Below, in pieces: positions 16,140 to 43,600 of a stretch of DNA of 43,600 bases (its first letter is position 1; the number at the start of each line of letters is the position of its first letter). The DNA is from a virus (taxonomy: Duplodnaviria; Heunggongvirae; Uroviricota; Caudoviricetes). The stretch lies in IMG/VR virus record IMGVR_UViG_3300033143_002710, one strand, 5' to 3'. Below the pieces are notes generated by a model. That model saw only the letters and a list, made by a program, of their open reading frames with translations. It did not search any database and was not told the DNA's origin. The position numbers were made by a program, and so were the translations under genes.

Positions 16140-16565
16140 TTGTCCCCGGCTTTTGGTGACAAGGCAGCTTCCAATTGGAAAGCTGGCCGGGGCCTCGAAG
16201 GATTAAGCTGCCATCGCTAGAGGCTGGAACGAATCCATACCTACAAACTCTGACATATCTGCTTCTTCCTCGACAAACTGTTCGTTTGCTTTTACTTTAG
16301 AGGCGGTTACGCCGCTTACGCGAGTCGTCTTCCGTGATTCCGTATACCATGTCGAAACCGATCACCCCCATCAAAAACTGTCTGTCCGGATTTCGGGTCA
16401 ATTGGCAGCGACCCTATCCTGTTGCTGCTTCTATTGCTTCAACCTTGCCAAAGATGAAACTCAAAGTGACTAACTCGACAAACAGCTTATGGTGGAGGTG
16501 GCGGGAATCGAACCCGCGTCCACAATACCTACTAACACAGCCTCAAACGACCATAAGTTTCCAAC
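16140..16565 (-). ncRNA. ssrA: Circularly permuted (two-piece) tmRNA gene
   Basis: Acceptor piece ends GGAC-GCGGG-TTCGATT-CCCGC-CACCTCC-A-CCA at 16490. Coding piece starts GGGGGTG-ATCGGTTTCGAC at 16369, downstream of that CCA. 7-bp acceptor stem with G3.U70; helix-2 pairings CACGG/CTGTG and AGACGAC/GTCGTTT; tag ORF 16289-16203. Outer ends approximate. Confidence 0.93.
16203..16289 (-). other. tmRNA tag reading frame ANEQFVEEEADMSEFVGMDSFQPLAMAA*
   Basis: Resume codon GCA preceded by GTAAAA (UA at -5/-4); starts AN, ends LAMAA-TAA like SsrA degrons. Confidence 0.88.
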
Positions 16566-16571
16566 GAATTC

Positions 16572-16600
16572 ATTCTTACATATTGCGAGTGAGTTTACAA
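16572..16600 (-). promoter_or_regulatory. Candidate tmRNA promoter
   Basis: TTGTAA-N17-AAGAAT with TG at -15/-14; start near 16565 gives a ~76-nt acceptor piece. Confidence 0.5.
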
Positions 16601-16774
16601 CCCACAAGTGTGTTTGTCCTTTCGACGCGCCCCACAGAGAATACAACCGTTGCTTCCAAGGCAACCGCGATTTTCTCTGTTGACGGAGGCTCTCAGCTTT
16701 CGAAGTCTGGTAATTTCACCCGCGTAATATTCCGGATCAATCTTTACCATTTTAATTAGGTCTTTATTTGCCAT
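16595..16774 (-). CDS. small basic protein with C-terminal CxxC
   Basis: Start MANKD; CILCG...HTC. Confidence 0.5.
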   Translation of the reverse strand: MANKDLIKMVKIDPEYYAGEITRLRKLRASVNRENRGCLGSNGCILCGARRKDKHTCGL

Positions 16775-17156
16775 TTGCACCAAACTCCTGCCAATCCTCA
16801 ACCGTCTGCTTGATGTAGGCCGTGTCGTGGTTAGGCATTTGCTTTTGGAATATCAAAAGATGTTTCGCGCACAGAGACATCGCACCTGTCTGACCATGCT
16901 CGTCTGGCTCGACCTCAGTCACTACGAAAACCGGCACGGCCGCGCATCGCACTGACGTATGACATGAGCCGCCAATTGTAAATGGATTGTATTTTTCTAT
17001 ATCCGTTTGGCACTGCTCAATATCAACAGGTTCCAGTGGCGATATCGCATCTTTCGACGGATAGATGTGACCATTCGCACACCTGTCATTTCCATTAGGT
17101 CGTCTTTCTCTGCTGACGCCTTCGGTCTTACAAGTTGGGCATAATCCGTAACTCAT
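16764..17156 (-). CDS. Cys-rich hypothetical protein
   Basis: YGLCPTC...RERRPNGNDRCANGH; AAGGAG SD. Confidence 0.7.
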   Translation of the reverse strand: MSYGLCPTCKTEGVSRERRPNGNDRCANGHIYPSKDAISPLEPVDIEQCQTDIEKYNPFTIGGSCHTSVRCAAVPVFVVTEVEPDEHGQTGAMSLCAKHLLIFQKQMPNHDTAYIKQTVEDWQEFGANGK

Positions 17157-17157
17157 T

Positions 17158-17379
17158 TTACTCTCCTTGATTTGCCGTGCTTTCAACCGTTGTTTCACCG
17201 AATTTTATGATGCCGTGAAACTGTGGTCCGAATCGTCGCCAAAAGCCGAAACGATTGCGACGGACAGTTCTGAAGAATCCAGTGACCCCACCGTCCATAC
17301 GGTTAGCTATCTGGTTTTTATTTAACCATGACGCTTTGCATGGGCCTTCGTGACCTTTCACTTCACTATAGAAAATCAT
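17158..17379 (-). CDS. hypothetical protein
   Basis: ATGA-coupled. Confidence 0.6.
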   Translation of the reverse strand: MIFYSEVKGHEGPCKASWLNKNQIANRMDGGVTGFFRTVRRNRFGFWRRFGPQFHGIIKFGETTVESTANQGE

Positions 17380-19781: not shown

Positions 19782-20017
19782 TACTGCCCTCCCTCTATTT
19801 TTAATCCGCTTTCCATCTCTGGCATCTCAGCAGATATTAGCTCAAATACTTCTCGTCCTACAAGTCCACTGACTGTCATAAACAACGCCTGTTGGCCTAT
19901 GAATAGCTGTGCGTCAGTTATCTCTCCAGCCTCGTGCTTTTCCAACAACCATACAGCCGTGTCGAGTGCTTTCCGCTCGATCTCTTCTCGTATGCTTGGG
20001 AACTCAGACTTAGGCAT
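19781..20017 (-). CDS. hypothetical protein
   Basis: Start MPKSE; TAATG/overlap coupling. Confidence 0.65.
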   Translation of the reverse strand: MPKSEFPSIREEIERKALDTAVWLLEKHEAGEITDAQLFIGQQALFMTVSGLVGREVFELISAEMPEMESGLKIEGGQ

Positions 20018-20675
20018 TGATAAAGTCCTTGCCTTTAATCTTTGTGATGACGCGAGAGCCGAATCGATTACGTAACTCCACTTGCGGTCGTGCCACAAAA
20101 CCCTCGAGCGGTAGGCGTGTCGATGACAGCAGAGACTCACAGGCTGGATATTCTTTCAGCTTTTTGTAGCCGTTCATCAACGTGTTCGTGAAGATGACAG
20201 GCACACAAGGAATGCCAAGTTGATGAGCGATATCCTCTACACTAGATCGCTCAAGCCATATTCCTAATGGATGATTCTCGCAAGGCTCCACGAACACATC
20301 GAACAGAATGAACCTTTGCTCGTCGCCATATAGCTTTGACATCTTCTGAATCTTGCCGCCGAACCCTTCGCCAATGAGAGTAATGCTACCAGCACCTTGA
20401 AAGACTGAGCTTAGCCTGGCGTCGGTGAAATGATCCTGCAAGTGTATAAGCAACTGCCCTGGAAGCTGCGCTCTATCACTACGACCGCCAAAGCGAACGC
20501 CATTACCATCCCAGCCGATACGAATGTTTGTACCGTCGACCTTCTCTGTGAAGTCCCACGGAACATTCTGGAGAATTTCGAACGCTGGATCGCTGAACTT
20601 ACCTTCTATAAAGGACTTGTAGTTATTCTCCGGGTCGCGATAAAATATCGACTGGATTTTATGATACGTCTGCAT
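20010..20675 (-). CDS. ATP-dependent RNA ligase (Rnl2-like nucleotidyltransferase)
   Basis: EKVDGTN (I), IGEGFG (III), FILFDV (IIIa), EGFV (IV), KIKGKDF (V). Confidence 0.85.
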   Translation of the reverse strand: MQTYHKIQSIFYRDPENNYKSFIEGKFSDPAFEILQNVPWDFTEKVDGTNIRIGWDGNGVRFGGRSDRAQLPGQLLIHLQDHFTDARLSSVFQGAGSITLIGEGFGGKIQKMSKLYGDEQRFILFDVFVEPCENHPLGIWLERSSVEDIAHQLGIPCVPVIFTNTLMNGYKKLKEYPACESLLSSTRLPLEGFVARPQVELRNRFGSRVITKIKGKDFINA

Positions 20676-33498: not shown

Positions 33499-33800
33499 TC
33501 TTCCTTTCTCTCGACCAGATTGGTCTTGCCAGTGCCGTTCATCTCCACATCGAAGGTGATCTCTTCGTCGTCATCAAGAATGTGGCCGGGAATGTCGATA
33601 TCCAAACCCTCTATACTTTCCAGAGAGATTACCGCTTCGTAATCCTCTTTTGTCAGCAGATTGCTGCCGCACTCTGGGCAAGGCTTATCGACGTACTCAG
33701 GATAGTTATCACGGTTCACACTGTCATCGCGATAATCACACTTTGGATTGTCGCACTTGATGCCTGAAATATGGATCGCCATTAGATTTACCTTGGTCAT
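33495..33800 (-). CDS. Zn-finger hypothetical protein
   Basis: CDNPKC...CPECG. Confidence 0.7.
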   Translation of the reverse strand: MTKVNLMAIHISGIKCDNPKCDYRDDSVNRDNYPEYVDKPCPECGSNLLTKEDYEAVISLESIEGLDIDIPGHILDDDEEITFDVEMNGTGKTNLVERKEE

Positions 33801-34237
33801 ACTTTTTGCCCATCCTCGATTGTGTATTGATGCGGAGTTTCATCCCCATACAAATCCTGGAGATGCTTAACATGCACCGCAAGACTGTCCAACAGTGCGG
33901 ACACTGGTGCGCGGGGCGGTCGATCATCGTTTAACTTGCCGACCAGATTAGCGTCAAGGATTATGGCGCAGCAAGCCATTACGGATGCAAGATGGGGAAC
34001 TTTCGTAACTAAATCTACGTCCTCCCCGTTCTTGTACTTCTCCATGTGCCGTTCCATCGCATCCAGATAAATGCTTGCCCGTACCCCGGCGATGCGCCAA
34101 TTGTACTTGCCGTATTTCAGTGCGCCCTCAAGAAAGCCCATCGCAAGATACGCCTTCGCTGAACCAGGCGTCAGATGCAATGGAACTTTCGTGACACCAA
34201 TGGCATCCTTTGGATTGGTCATCTTCTTTCCGCTCAC
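33797..34237 (-). CDS. dATP/dGTP diphosphohydrolase (DUF5664-like)
   Basis: NPKDAIGVTKVPL, GALKYGKYNWR, HLASVMAC. Confidence 0.85.
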   Translation of the reverse strand: MSGKKMTNPKDAIGVTKVPLHLTPGSAKAYLAMGFLEGALKYGKYNWRIAGVRASIYLDAMERHMEKYKNGEDVDLVTKVPHLASVMACCAIILDANLVGKLNDDRPPRAPVSALLDSLAVHVKHLQDLYGDETPHQYTIEDGQKV

Positions 34238-40674: not shown

Positions 40675-41222
40675 TATAGCTCAATCGTTTTGACCGTTTG
40701 CCCATCGACCTTCACCAGATTGAGAGCGGCGAAGATTGATGTGCATATTCCTACGTGTGAGTTGGCCGTACCACGGGTCCATTTGAATTCCAAACAGAAC
40801 TTTTCAGCCAGGTCACGTTTCTTGTACCCGCCCTTCAAAACTTGATCGAATGCGAAGGCTAAGAACTTTGGCTTATCCTGAAGCGGATTGAACAGTCCCA
40901 TTAAACCCGCTTTCAAATCAATGCCGCGTTTCTCCACACTTCCGTATGTTTCTCTTGCTTTGACGGTCATTATTCCTCTTTTTGTCTCTGATACACCAGA
41001 CATGTGCGACACAACAGCACTCTGCCTGGTCGTTGGCTTCGTCAGTCGCTCTGTAACAGCAGGTTTCTGCTTGGATAGCTCAACGCTAACCCCAAGTTTA
41101 CGAAGTCGCTGAGCGCGATCTGACACGCTCTCGCTACAAGCCGCACTGTCATTGCACGACTGGCATATCTGACTGTCAGGATTGTGCGTGACTATGTGTC
41201 CAAAGCAGCCTTTAATTCCCAT
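40674..41222 (-). CDS. Zn-finger + putative winged-helix protein
   Basis: CF...CQSC...C; WTRGTANSHV. Confidence 0.65.
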   Translation of the reverse strand: MGIKGCFGHIVTHNPDSQICQSCNDSAACSESVSDRAQRLRKLGVSVELSKQKPAVTERLTKPTTRQSAVVSHMSGVSETKRGIMTVKARETYGSVEKRGIDLKAGLMGLFNPLQDKPKFLAFAFDQVLKGGYKKRDLAEKFCLEFKWTRGTANSHVGICTSIFAALNLVKVDGQTVKTIEL

Positions 41223-41877
41223 ATTGGATTCTCCAGAGTTCCGTCTTGATACTCTTGAACTCGTACTCTCCTATACCCCAGATGACTCTCGCGATCTCGG
41301 CTATGACAATAATGTCAGGTGGTGCATTTCCAGCGGGTCTGATATTCATTTCTCGTCTCAGTTTGGCCTGTTCTTTTGCGGCGTCAAACTCTTCTCGTAA
41401 CCAATCTGGCGGCGCAAGCATGAGTCGATAGATTATTCTTGCCTTTGGGCTGAGTGATTCCATTCTGGCGTCAACGTCCTCTTGCATCTCAAGCAACACA
41501 TCAGGCTCATACATCGCCCCTATATCCAGAACCTCTTCCAACGTCTTTGTTATACCCTCTTCATTGCTCACCGGCTGATTGATGCTGTCCATTCTAGCCG
41601 ACACACCATGTTTAATATTGCCGTTGTTGTGGACGTATCTATTCAAATTGGTAAGAACCGCTCGATGCAAGTAGGTTGTAAACTTGACGCCATATTGAGG
41701 ATCAAACTTCTCGCAAGATTGCATCCAAGTCATGGCTCCCTCTTGTATCAAGTCCTCGATTGATATGCGATGTTCGAGCCTGGCGGCCATGACTCGACCA
41801 AAAACCTTATGAGCTATTCCGCACACCATCTTCTCGATTGAGGGCCACTTTCGAAACTTGTCATCGTCGACTAGCAT
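41212..41877 (-). CDS. sigma70-family-like phage transcription factor
   Basis: Region 2 match EDLIQEG...EKFDPQYGVKFTTY; region-4-like LSPKARII. Confidence 0.75.
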   Translation of the reverse strand: MLVDDDKFRKWPSIEKMVCGIAHKVFGRVMAARLEHRISIEDLIQEGAMTWMQSCEKFDPQYGVKFTTYLHRAVLTNLNRYVHNNGNIKHGVSARMDSINQPVSNEEGITKTLEEVLDIGAMYEPDVLLEMQEDVDARMESLSPKARIIYRLMLAPPDWLREEFDAAKEQAKLRREMNIRPAGNAPPDIIVIAEIARVIWGIGEYEFKSIKTELWRIQYGN

Positions 41878-41878
41878 C

Positions 41879-43018
41879 CTATGCGAATATCCGTTGCGCT
41901 AGCTGCCTCGCTACTTCGCGGTCAATGGTTGATAATCTATTGACGTACGCCAGTTCCAGGCCCTTGATGAAATCCCCTCGCATCGTACCAATCTTACCGG
42001 CATGAATGAGAGCGCGTGGTGATACGGGCATTGACATCTCGCTTGCGTCCACCAACTTTCGAATTTTGTTGCCGAACTTCACCAGTAAATCCGCATCCTT
42101 CTTGTGAAGATTCGCCTGAGACTGCAAAATCAGGGTCTCGATCTTTGCGTCCATGTAGTTGACCTTCTCTACGATTGCGAATCTCTCGTAGTTGGCGGCG
42201 TTCTGTAATTGGGTGCCCTGATATAGACCGGACTCATCGCCAACTCCGTTGGTATTGCCAGTCGCTACAAACCTGAAGTTCGGATGCGGCTTGACTACGC
42301 GCCATTCACCCTCTGCTTCTTTGATGACTAGCGGCTTGCCTTCCAACACTGGTTGGTAAACGGAAAGAACATGTGGAACGCCGAAGTCGTATTCGTCAGC
42401 TAGATATATCCAGCCGTGCTTCATCGCCAATGGTAAAGGCCCTGGCTTAAACATCGTCTCGTTTCCTCGCAAGACCATGTGGCCGAGAATATTTGATTCC
42501 TCTGTGTTGAGGGTGTGTTGTACTCGAAGAACGGGTCGATTGATTCGAGCAGCCACTTGCTCGTGTGCGGAAGTTTTACCGGTTCCAGCATGACCCCAAA
42601 GATAGACGGGCATCGATTCTGACAGGCCCATAAGAATGATCTTGGTGAGGGCAATATTGTAGACGTAATTGCGATCAATCTCAGGCACCATATCTTGATG
42701 ATCGTGCTTACCTAATATGGCGATATTTATCGGCGCACCAGATGGTGTCATTGCCTCTGGTGCTGTGCCTAGTTCGAATACTTCGTGGAATGGCGCACGA
42801 GAGTCTTTGTCGCCTAGCTCACGAGCTTTGTATATCTTTTCCGCCGCCTTATCATCGAGAATTCTCTTAACCCTGTCAGATATGACGGGTGCATCTGGAT
42901 ACTTCTTTTTGTACTTCTCAAGGCTCCAGCCCTCATCTTTGTGCGCCGTCACGAGATGCTTTTTGATCGCGTGAACCTCTGCGCTACAAATTTGACATAC
43001 TATCTTTTCCTCACCCAT
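41879..43018 (-). CDS. MoxR-type AAA+ ATPase (CobS/CbbQ-like) with N-terminal C2H2-like finger
   Basis: GHAGTGKTS, LADEYD, ATGNT, YERF; CQIC...HLVTAH. Confidence 0.9.
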   Translation of the reverse strand: MGEEKIVCQICSAEVHAIKKHLVTAHKDEGWSLEKYKKKYPDAPVISDRVKRILDDKAAEKIYKARELGDKDSRAPFHEVFELGTAPEAMTPSGAPINIAILGKHDHQDMVPEIDRNYVYNIALTKIILMGLSESMPVYLWGHAGTGKTSAHEQVAARINRPVLRVQHTLNTEESNILGHMVLRGNETMFKPGPLPLAMKHGWIYLADEYDFGVPHVLSVYQPVLEGKPLVIKEAEGEWRVVKPHPNFRFVATGNTNGVGDESGLYQGTQLQNAANYERFAIVEKVNYMDAKIETLILQSQANLHKKDADLLVKFGNKIRKLVDASEMSMPVSPRALIHAGKIGTMRGDFIKGLELAYVNRLSTIDREVARQLAQRIFA

Positions 43019-43100
43019 GTTGCTACCTCACTTGTTAGATGTTTGCAGTTGATTTGCCAATCTTACAGCAATGGTATAAGAACGCAAATTCTCCCGTAGG

Positions 43101-43600
43101 CTATAATGATCCCCTCATTAGCATAGCCTCAAGAACTCCCATGACCGTCGTTAGTACCTCATCCATATGCTTGATCACCACGGCGTTCTTGTAGAATCGC
43201 TTTACGCTTTCATCCATAATTCCTAGTCCGAACACTTCAACGCCAGACGCTTCTAGTCGTTTCACTACCCGTCTAAGATGAACGGCTTGCTCACGATAAT
43301 CTCCACGCGCAGATGGACACCCGTCACTCAAAACAATCATTAGTTTTCTAGCGCCTGGCTGCGCCCACAACATTCTTCCGGCATACTCTATGCTCTCGCC
43401 GTCAACATTGTTTCTCAGACGAACATCTTTAGCCGCCATAATGACTGCCGACTGTCTGTCTGCTGTGAAATTCTGATTCCAATCCTTTAGAATTGGCATA
43501 TAGATCGGCTCATATCTGGATGGCGCTCTACCGTCTTGTCGCTCGATGATCTCAGTGTGATGAGTTACTAGATTCATATCCTTAGTTGTGAATCCGACAA
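43101..43600 (-). CDS. CobT-like vWA domain protein, C-terminal part (5' end beyond window)
   Basis: NVDGE, MIVLSDG, FGLGI; adjacent to MoxR ATPase. Confidence 0.8.
   Translation of the reverse strand, partial: VGFTTKDMNLVTHHTEIIERQDGRAPSRYEPIYMPILKDWNQNFTADRQSAVIMAAKDVRLRNNVDGESIEYAGRMLWAQPGARKLMIVLSDGCPSARGDYREQAVHLRRVVKRLEASGVEVFGLGIMDESVKRFYKNAVVIKHMDEVLTTVMGVLEAMLMRGSL

Follow-up and report, generated by a model that had tools for sequence, protein, structure and literature searches.

A circularly permuted, two-piece tmRNA gene in an uncultivated large tailed phage

Positions 16140-16565 of the DNA analysed here hold, on the minus strand, a circularly permuted, two-piece tmRNA gene (ssrA), an assignment that was confirmed by the analysis below. 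The whole stretch, referred to as the window, comprises 43,600 nucleotides of a tailed virus (Caudoviricetes; IMG/VR record IMGVR_UViG_3300033143_002710). tmRNA is the RNA that rescues stalled ribosomes. Read 5' to 3' along the minus strand, the features of the locus follow one another in this order:

16572-16600, minus: putative sigma-70-type promoter, with a -10-like element at a conserved column
16490-16565, minus: acceptor piece, about 76 nt (ARAGORN, RF04321; 5' end predicted from the promoter), comprising the next five features
16565-16553, minus: leader, holding part of the invariant TTCGTTGG
16552-16521, minus: 5' strands of the three P2 helices (P2a, P2b, P2c)
16517-16501, minus: T-arm
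16500-16494, minus: acceptor 3' strand, CACCTCC
16493-16490, minus: ACCA
16370-16489, minus: intervening segment (spacer), 120 nt, whose closing helix covaries
16140-16369, minus: coding piece, about 230 nt (ARAGORN, RF04321, conservation; 3' end predicted near 16140), comprising the remaining features
16369-16363, minus: acceptor 5' strand, GGGGGTG
16362-16352, minus: D-loop analogue
16351-16323, minus: 3' strands of the three P2 helices
16322-16303, minus: pk1 region, with a small hairpin that covaries
16203-16289, minus: tag reading frame (ARAGORN; homologous tags)
16144-16197, minus: GC-rich post-tag 3' domain, with compensatory changes

The gene was called by ARAGORN as a permuted 'tmRNA*' at 16582-16112 (minus strand) with the tag ANEQFVEEEADMSEFVGMDSFQPLAMAA, and the Rfam family tmRNA_permuted (RF04321) aligned over its full length (model positions 1-213) with 110.4 bits (gathering score 47; E = 7.7e-21). 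RF04321 was the sole Rfam family to reach its gathering score anywhere in the window, where neither an RF00023 match nor a standard ARAGORN call for a one-piece tmRNA was obtained. The permuted order is directly visible: the encoded CCA (16492-16490), which ends the segment of T-arm, acceptor 3' strand and ACCA at 16521-16490, precedes G1 (16369) on the minus strand. The seven base pairs of the acceptor stem join GGGGGTG (G1-G7, 16369-16363) to CACCTCC (16500-16494), with the G3.U70 wobble at 16367/16496 and A16493 as discriminator A73. This alanine identity set, namely a 7-bp stem with G3.U70, A73, an encoded CCA and a T-arm, is invariant in nine sequences. The P2 pairings are 16552-16548/16327-16323, 16540-16536/16336-16332 and 16528-16521/16351-16344, as in the Rfam model. 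On re-reading of the sequence, the coordinates given in the initial annotation all hold on the minus strand; its pairings and the G3.U70 wobble are correct, its P2 helices agree with RF04321, and its estimates of about 76 and 230 nt for the two pieces are judged reasonable. The match to a permuted model that it had proposed as a check was obtained from RF04321 and from ARAGORN alike. It had also noticed no second CCA end after the tag frame, and indeed no second tRNA-like end (T-arm, acceptor strand and CCA) was found 3' of the tag in the sequence, by ARAGORN or by Rfam.

Nearly all long open reading frames (ORFs) of the window lie on the minus strand. They encode a DnaE-type polymerase, an epsilon-like exonuclease, SbcCD, a UvsX-like recombinase, a class II-like ribonucleotide reductase, SSB, an RNA ligase, a phosphoesterase, CobS/CobT-like proteins and a sigma-70 region-2 protein. 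With the polymerases of Pseudomonas, Rhizobium and Stenotrophomonas phages of 108-122 kb, that of the window shares about 41% identity, and the exonuclease matches IMG/VR records of 100-112 kb, three of which have terminal repeats. From this gene content and these relatives, the window is taken to be a section of the genome, exceeding 100 kb, of an uncultivated tailed phage. A bacterial chromosome or island, bearing the permuted ssrA of the cell itself, would be an extremely improbable source: in its favour, a single related IMG/VR record carries a provirus classification; against it, the genes share one strand and form a phage replication module, the best relatives are 100-120-kb phages with terminal repeats, and the tmRNA gene keeps its neighbourhood on phage contigs that reach 111 kb.

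Several other genes of this phage deserve mention. The ORF at 33797-34237 (minus) carries the N-terminal domain of a dATP/dGTP diphosphohydrolase (PF18909, E = 4e-23); MazZ/DatZ-type enzymes are associated with the remodelling of phage nucleotide pools (2-aminoadenine genomes). The sigma-70 region 2 protein lies at 41212-41877 (minus; PF04542, E = 7e-10). At 41879-43577 (minus), a CobS-like AAA ATPase (phrog_249) adjoins a CobT-like VWA protein (PF11775), a pair often met in large phages. The RNA ligase-like protein (phrog_548) at 20010-20675 and the phosphoesterase (phrog_547) at 13195-13782 (both minus) belong to the same module. The phage seems to carry a broad kit for translation maintenance and RNA repair.

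Relatives of the locus were first found through homologues of the protein encoded just upstream (16764-17198), and every long-enough contig with such a homologue carries a permuted tmRNA in the same position. Further contigs were found by using a spurious ORF called over the tmRNA as a search handle. In all, eight distinct syntenic versions are available, the window and seven from metagenome contigs (L135, L136, L137, L139, L143, L150 and L148), one variant being present on at least 24 contigs, the longest of 111 kb. The relatives score 103-118 bits with RF04321. In the contig L136, a radical SAM gene (L136:949-1869), absent from the window, is inserted between the exonuclease gene and the tmRNA neighbourhood. 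No near relative was found in the phage collection by megablast with 14 kb around the gene; distant blastn against the same collection matched the tmRNA only in its generic 35-base T-arm/acceptor end, and pattern scans of viral contigs (CCA-spacer-G1; a P2/T-arm 22-mer) gave no match. The gene is sporadic in the broader group, being absent from four complete or near-complete IMG/VR relatives and from five cultured relatives, and these nine related phages without it indicate that the tmRNA is dispensable. Related contigs, some with other spacers, occur in marine, sediment and cold-seep DNA runs, as contigs only and in small shares; the habitat is probably marine sediment or cold seep.

Covariation among related phages, chosen beforehand as a test of the assignment, was found. 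The structure tested consisted of the pairs of the Rfam alignment and our own reading of the 3' domain, 52 pairs in nine sequences. Standard pairs occupied 99.1% of the 447 cells, and 12 of the 52 pairs were changed on both sides, a number reached by none of 500 shuffles; control structures slid by one to three columns gave at most three such pairs. The compensatory changes fall in P2a and P2b (two double-sided pairs each), the pk1 hairpin, the outer stem and inner hairpin of the 3' domain and one pair of a candidate pseudoknot. P2c is 100% paired; like the acceptor stem and the T-arm it is invariant, so that covariation neither supports nor contradicts these three elements. RNAalifold, run blind on the same alignment, gave the same helices. 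Single-sequence minimum free energy (MFE) folding returned 7 of the 24 expected pairs between the pieces, and MFE and cofold recovered only the acceptor and spacer stems. Such poor recovery from single sequences is usual for tmRNA and lends the structure no support.

The spacer between the pieces and its counterparts in the relatives are 60-130 nt long and unalignable, yet all of them close with a covarying helix of about 11 bp, which in the window joins 16488-16477 to 16375-16386. In every sequence, base k after the CCA pairs with base k+4 before G1. In this register 104 of 126 cells are paired, and single columns show as many as four pair types; sliding it lowers the count to 51-67. Before G1, facing ACCA, a stretch of four to five bases, UGAU in most cases, stays unpaired. 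No conserved ORF was found in the spacers of the window and its relatives, the longest in that of the window having 16 codons with a TTG start. The fixed register and the covariation of the closing helix therefore suggest that both halves are made as one precursor, which would be cut into RNAs of about 76 and 230 nt. These alignments give comparative evidence, though only of an indirect kind, for a spacer that would form a rod stacked beyond the acceptor stem in a single precursor. A precursor of this form is what one would expect RNase P to act on from one side and 3' trimming from the other, presumably with host enzymes.

Upstream of the acceptor piece, the putative promoter consists of a -35-like TTGTAA (16600-16595), which overlaps the stop codon of a small upstream ORF, a TG at 16580-16579 and a -10-like AAGAAT at 16577-16572 (minus). 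In seven full-length sequences the -10 element occupies the same alignment columns (TATAAT in four; TAACAT, GATAAG and, in the window, AAGAAT in one each), and the beta_tmRNA model places its own promoter-like 5' part over this site, which in the window scores just below the threshold of a consensus promoter scan. Transcription is predicted to start near G16565; it is the conserved position of the -10 element that places the start there and gives the acceptor piece its length of about 76 nt. The octamer TTCGTTGG (16568-16561, minus) begins three bases after the -10 element, spans the predicted start and is invariant in all seven full-length sequences; it could act as the promoter discriminator, as a signal for processing or as a partner of the 3'-domain loop. 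The small upstream ORF, Cys-rich and of about 59 codons (16595-16774, minus), ends exactly at the -35-like element, and a small ORF holds the same position in L135, L136 and L137.

In the coding piece, the pk1 region contains a hairpin (16315-16312 with 16306-16303) around an invariant CGUAA loop, and its stem covaries from GCGG/CCGC to ACAG/CUGU and GCAG/CUGC. A second stem, 16322-16321/16311-16310, would possibly give a compact pseudoknot; its two to three pairs are invariant and hence silent on covariation. After the tag, the outer stem 16192-16186/16150-16144 shows compensatory changes (G-C to C-G in six of nine sequences), as do the inner hairpin 16185-16181/16169-16165 in four pairs and the candidate pseudoknot stem 16197-16193/16164-16160 in one pair, while a conserved A-rich loop occupies 16159-16151. 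These elements form a single structured domain, probably pseudoknotted, which resembles the 3' end of the alpha_tmRNA consensus. The suggestion that the coding piece leaves no room for pk2-4 is accordingly only partly right, because this conserved and covarying structured domain, at 16197-16144, comes after the tag. Conservation ends after GGGGA (16147-16143) and the ribosome binding site and ATG of the next gene follow at 16131-16119, so that the coding piece is estimated at about 230 nt. No clean intrinsic terminator was found downstream of the tmRNA. Two further pairings were rejected: an H-type pseudoknot between the end of the tag and 16170-16163 was dropped because a local hairpin covaries instead, and a pairing of TTCGTT with the AACGAA of the tag start is broken in L150 without compensation. 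A third pairs UUGGUAA of the leader with UUACCAA in the 3'-domain loop; it comprises nine of nine pairs in two relatives and seven to eight in two more, against only four to six in the window and two others. By joining the acceptor-piece leader to the A-rich loop, such a helix would, hypothetically, re-close the permuted RNA.

The tag frame starts with the resume codon GCA (Ala, 16289-16287), runs for 84 nt (28 residues) and ends with the TAA stop at 16205-16203. The tags of the eight distinct versions are homologous, acidic and 28-30 residues long, with a consensus of roughly ANEEFVED...FQP.AMAA; their conserved parts are the start AN-E/D-x-F-V-E-D/E, the middle D-M/L-S-x-L-M-G-x-D, F-Q-P and the end AMAA. 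Length differences between them consist of whole codons only. Nonsynonymous change is suppressed: 27 of the 28 pairs have a pN/pS below one, and variation is highest at the third codon position (23 of 33 columns variable, as opposed to 14 and 10 for the other two). The exception is the closest pair, the window and L135, with eight non-synonymous changes, all conservative, to one synonymous. Purifying selection together with whole-codon indels thus argues that the frame is translated and constrained beyond its C-terminus. The tag may be bipartite in makeup: an alpha-like start for adaptor binding (ANEEFVED) would be combined with an additional conserved module (D-M/L-S-x-L-M-G-x-D...F-Q-P) and with AMAA as a ClpX-type end. 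That it is a phage-specialised signal rather than a plain degron, one by which tagged products, of host or nonstop origin, would meet another fate than under the host tmRNA, is a speculative and rather unlikely proposal. In addition, two IMG/VR viral contigs carry an alpha-type permuted tmRNA with a 25-residue tag, ANKKALGFADVTFMLPGKTELRLAA (L130:6557-6934 and L133:6369-6746), and long tags thus recur among phage two-piece tmRNAs.

These features bear on whether the RNA still rescues ribosomes. It might instead be a decoy titrating host SmpB, or a fragment of a host ssrA left at an attachment site. Phages do carry ssrA fragments and genes for the tRNA-like domain alone, and the RNA of the latter kind in mycobacteriophage DS6A was proposed as an SmpB-titrating decoy (PMC4131195). 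The lack of a nearby smpB would fit as well: as the initial annotation had noted, none is found, here among the minus-strand ORFs of at least 120 residues in the 43.6 kb examined, the whole genome being larger than 100 kb. On the other hand, the two halves, the context of the resume codon, the tag frame and its stop are all conserved in intact form, purifying selection acts on the tag peptide, P2, pk1 and the 3' domain covary, and no integrase family was found among the ORFs scanned with PHROG and Pfam. A decoy or remnant is hence very unlikely.

A functional rescue RNA can be pictured as follows. A promoter just upstream would yield one precursor, in which the tRNA-like halves would pair through the acceptor stem and the three P2 helices while the spacer folds back in its closing helix. 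Host RNase P would cut before G16369 and host 3'-processing nucleases would trim to the encoded CCA at 16490; with the spacer removed, an acceptor RNA of about 76 nt would stay paired to a coding RNA of about 230 nt. Host alanyl-tRNA synthetase (AlaRS) would charge this RNA through G3.U70 and A73, and it would reach stalled ribosomes with the host's SmpB and EF-Tu, provided that SmpB, AlaRS and ClpX of the host are compatible with it, as we assume. Translation would then resume on GCA at 16289 and add the 28-residue acidic tag ending in AMAA, a putative ClpXP-type C-terminal degron. The likely benefit would be that ribosomes keep recycling while infection yields broken mRNAs. Taken as a whole, we consider it probable that the locus is a functional permuted ssrA and an accessory gene of a clade of large DnaE-type phages, that its precursor is cut by host enzymes, and that the gene was probably captured in an already permuted state.

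Concerning origin, the best model of the Rfam clan is beta_tmRNA (RF01850), with 66.4 bits for the window and 75.7-82.6 bits for L135, L136 and L137, all four below its gathering score of 84; in each of them alpha_tmRNA (RF01849) ranked below it and dropped out in clan competition. L005, a phage of the same broad group but less closely related, carries a beta-type gene that passes the beta_tmRNA gathering score (102.7 bits) and has an ordinary 12-residue tag. The subtype models cross-hit: with the alpha model L005 still scores 73 bits, and with the beta model the alpha-type gene of the viral contig L130 scores 62. A beta origin is therefore soft, given the score below threshold and this strong cross-hitting. 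The features are mixed too, with a beta-like tRNA-like domain and P2 beside an alpha-like tag start and 3' domain, and the gene is assigned to permuted tmRNA but to no subtype. More than 120 one-piece tmRNA genes on genome contigs, nearly all of Actinomycetota, contain the 19 bases with which the coding piece starts (GGGGGTGATCGGTTTCGAC) without a single change, so that the 5' tRNA-like domain cannot serve to mark a lineage.

The initial annotation had left two origins side by side, capture from a host with a permuted gene and an independent permutation in a phage; the former is now favoured, though not proven, and the latter less so. An independent permutation of a captured one-piece tmRNA within the phage lineage could be read from subtype scores that are below or near threshold throughout the clade, from the mixture of beta-like and alpha-like features, from the 19 bases shared with Actinomycetota one-piece genes and from spacers far longer than the bacterial consensus. 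Nevertheless, it appears improbable: the position of the break matches that of the bacterial permuted lineages, RF04321 and RF01850 align over their full length, promoter-proximal part included, a related phage carries a bona fide beta-type gene, and the shared 19-mer merely reflects the conserved tRNA-like domain. A bacterial gene that was permuted before its capture is the more economical origin, and a likely one.

With the present gene, two-piece tmRNAs occur in another phage lineage and, probably, in another habitat, marine sediment or cold seep. Eight natural variants, a structure backed by covariation, a spacer helix that would show how the precursor meets its processing enzymes and a long tag under selection make the clade a well-defined case for the role of phage tmRNAs, and it bears on the question of whether these RNAs merely boost ribosome rescue or re-target the tagged proteins. 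The general picture of tmRNA biology is unchanged, because standard tools find the gene and phage examples have already been published.

Among bacterial systems, a two-piece alphaproteobacterial tmRNA was reportedly described in Caulobacter by Keiler, Shapiro and Williams in 2000. The start of the window tag, AN(D/E)xF.EE/D.F, resembles that of the Caulobacter tag, which we take to be ANDNFAEEF. As proposed here for the phage gene, the alphaproteobacterial type (RF01849) has one precursor cut to an acceptor RNA and a coding RNA; the T-loop of the window, however, is the ordinary GGUUCGAUUCC and not the alpha form. The betaproteobacterial two-piece tmRNA (Sharkady and Williams, 2004, as cited in PMC9004378 and PMC11915505; RF01850) equals the phage gene in gene order, tRNA-like domain, P2 layout and promoter-proximal start. 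It differs in that the phage spacer of 60-130 nt far exceeds the model consensus, the phage tag is about three times longer and the 3' domain is of another kind.

The initial annotation, for which phage tmRNAs are mostly one-piece, overstated the novelty of the locus, as two-piece forms have been published and are found in cultured phages. Buchholz et al. (2022) described a two-piece tmRNA in the OM43 phage Melnitz, found it in 17 of 47 Melnitz-like contigs and counted 53 two-piece genes among 133 unique phage tmRNAs; such genes also occur in pelagimyophages such as Mosig and in some cyanophages (PMC9004378). A tmRNA database of 2025 holds 79 phage sequences. Like the window, the Melnitz and pelagimyophage cases have a permuted ssrA in a lytic-type large phage, called as tmRNA* by ARAGORN and with no phage smpB reported, and in the Melnitz group too the gene is accessory, being present in only some members. 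The carriers of the Melnitz type are T4-like myophages, whereas the window belongs to a DnaE-type phage of about 100 kb; it also differs from that type in lacking a glutamine riboswitch match (Rfam, window), in its best subtype, which is beta and not alpha, and in its tag of 28-30 residues.

Permuted calls were also made by ARAGORN in Stenotrophomonas phage Marzo and its relatives (Menderavirus), where a tmRNA is annotated at exactly ARAGORN's coordinates in Marzo, in Alcaligenes phage vB_Af_QDWS595, where it is unannotated, and in further IMG/VR contigs. The Marzo group and vB_Af_QDWS595 have a near-identical 35-37-base T-arm/acceptor end in common with the window; their tags are short (VAANDDSYTVRIAA and ANDNVYAAAA, respectively), and their genes lie inside tRNA clusters of phages unrelated to that of the window. 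In vB_Af_QDWS595 (OK149171.2; L168:641-1061), the permuted tmRNA with the tag ANDNVYAAAA is directly followed by a tRNA with the anticodon UUA, of ochre-suppressor type. The one-piece tmRNAs of the mycobacteriophage Bxz1 group and Bacillus phage G resemble the window in having ssrA without smpB, and differ from its permuted gene in their standard gene order (PMC4131195). The two-piece phage tmRNA is therefore a known kind, of which the window provides a clean further example; its clade stands apart by its phage lineage, by a conserved tag about three times as long as usual, by the well-supported helix of the spacer and by a habitat that is probably sediment or cold seep.
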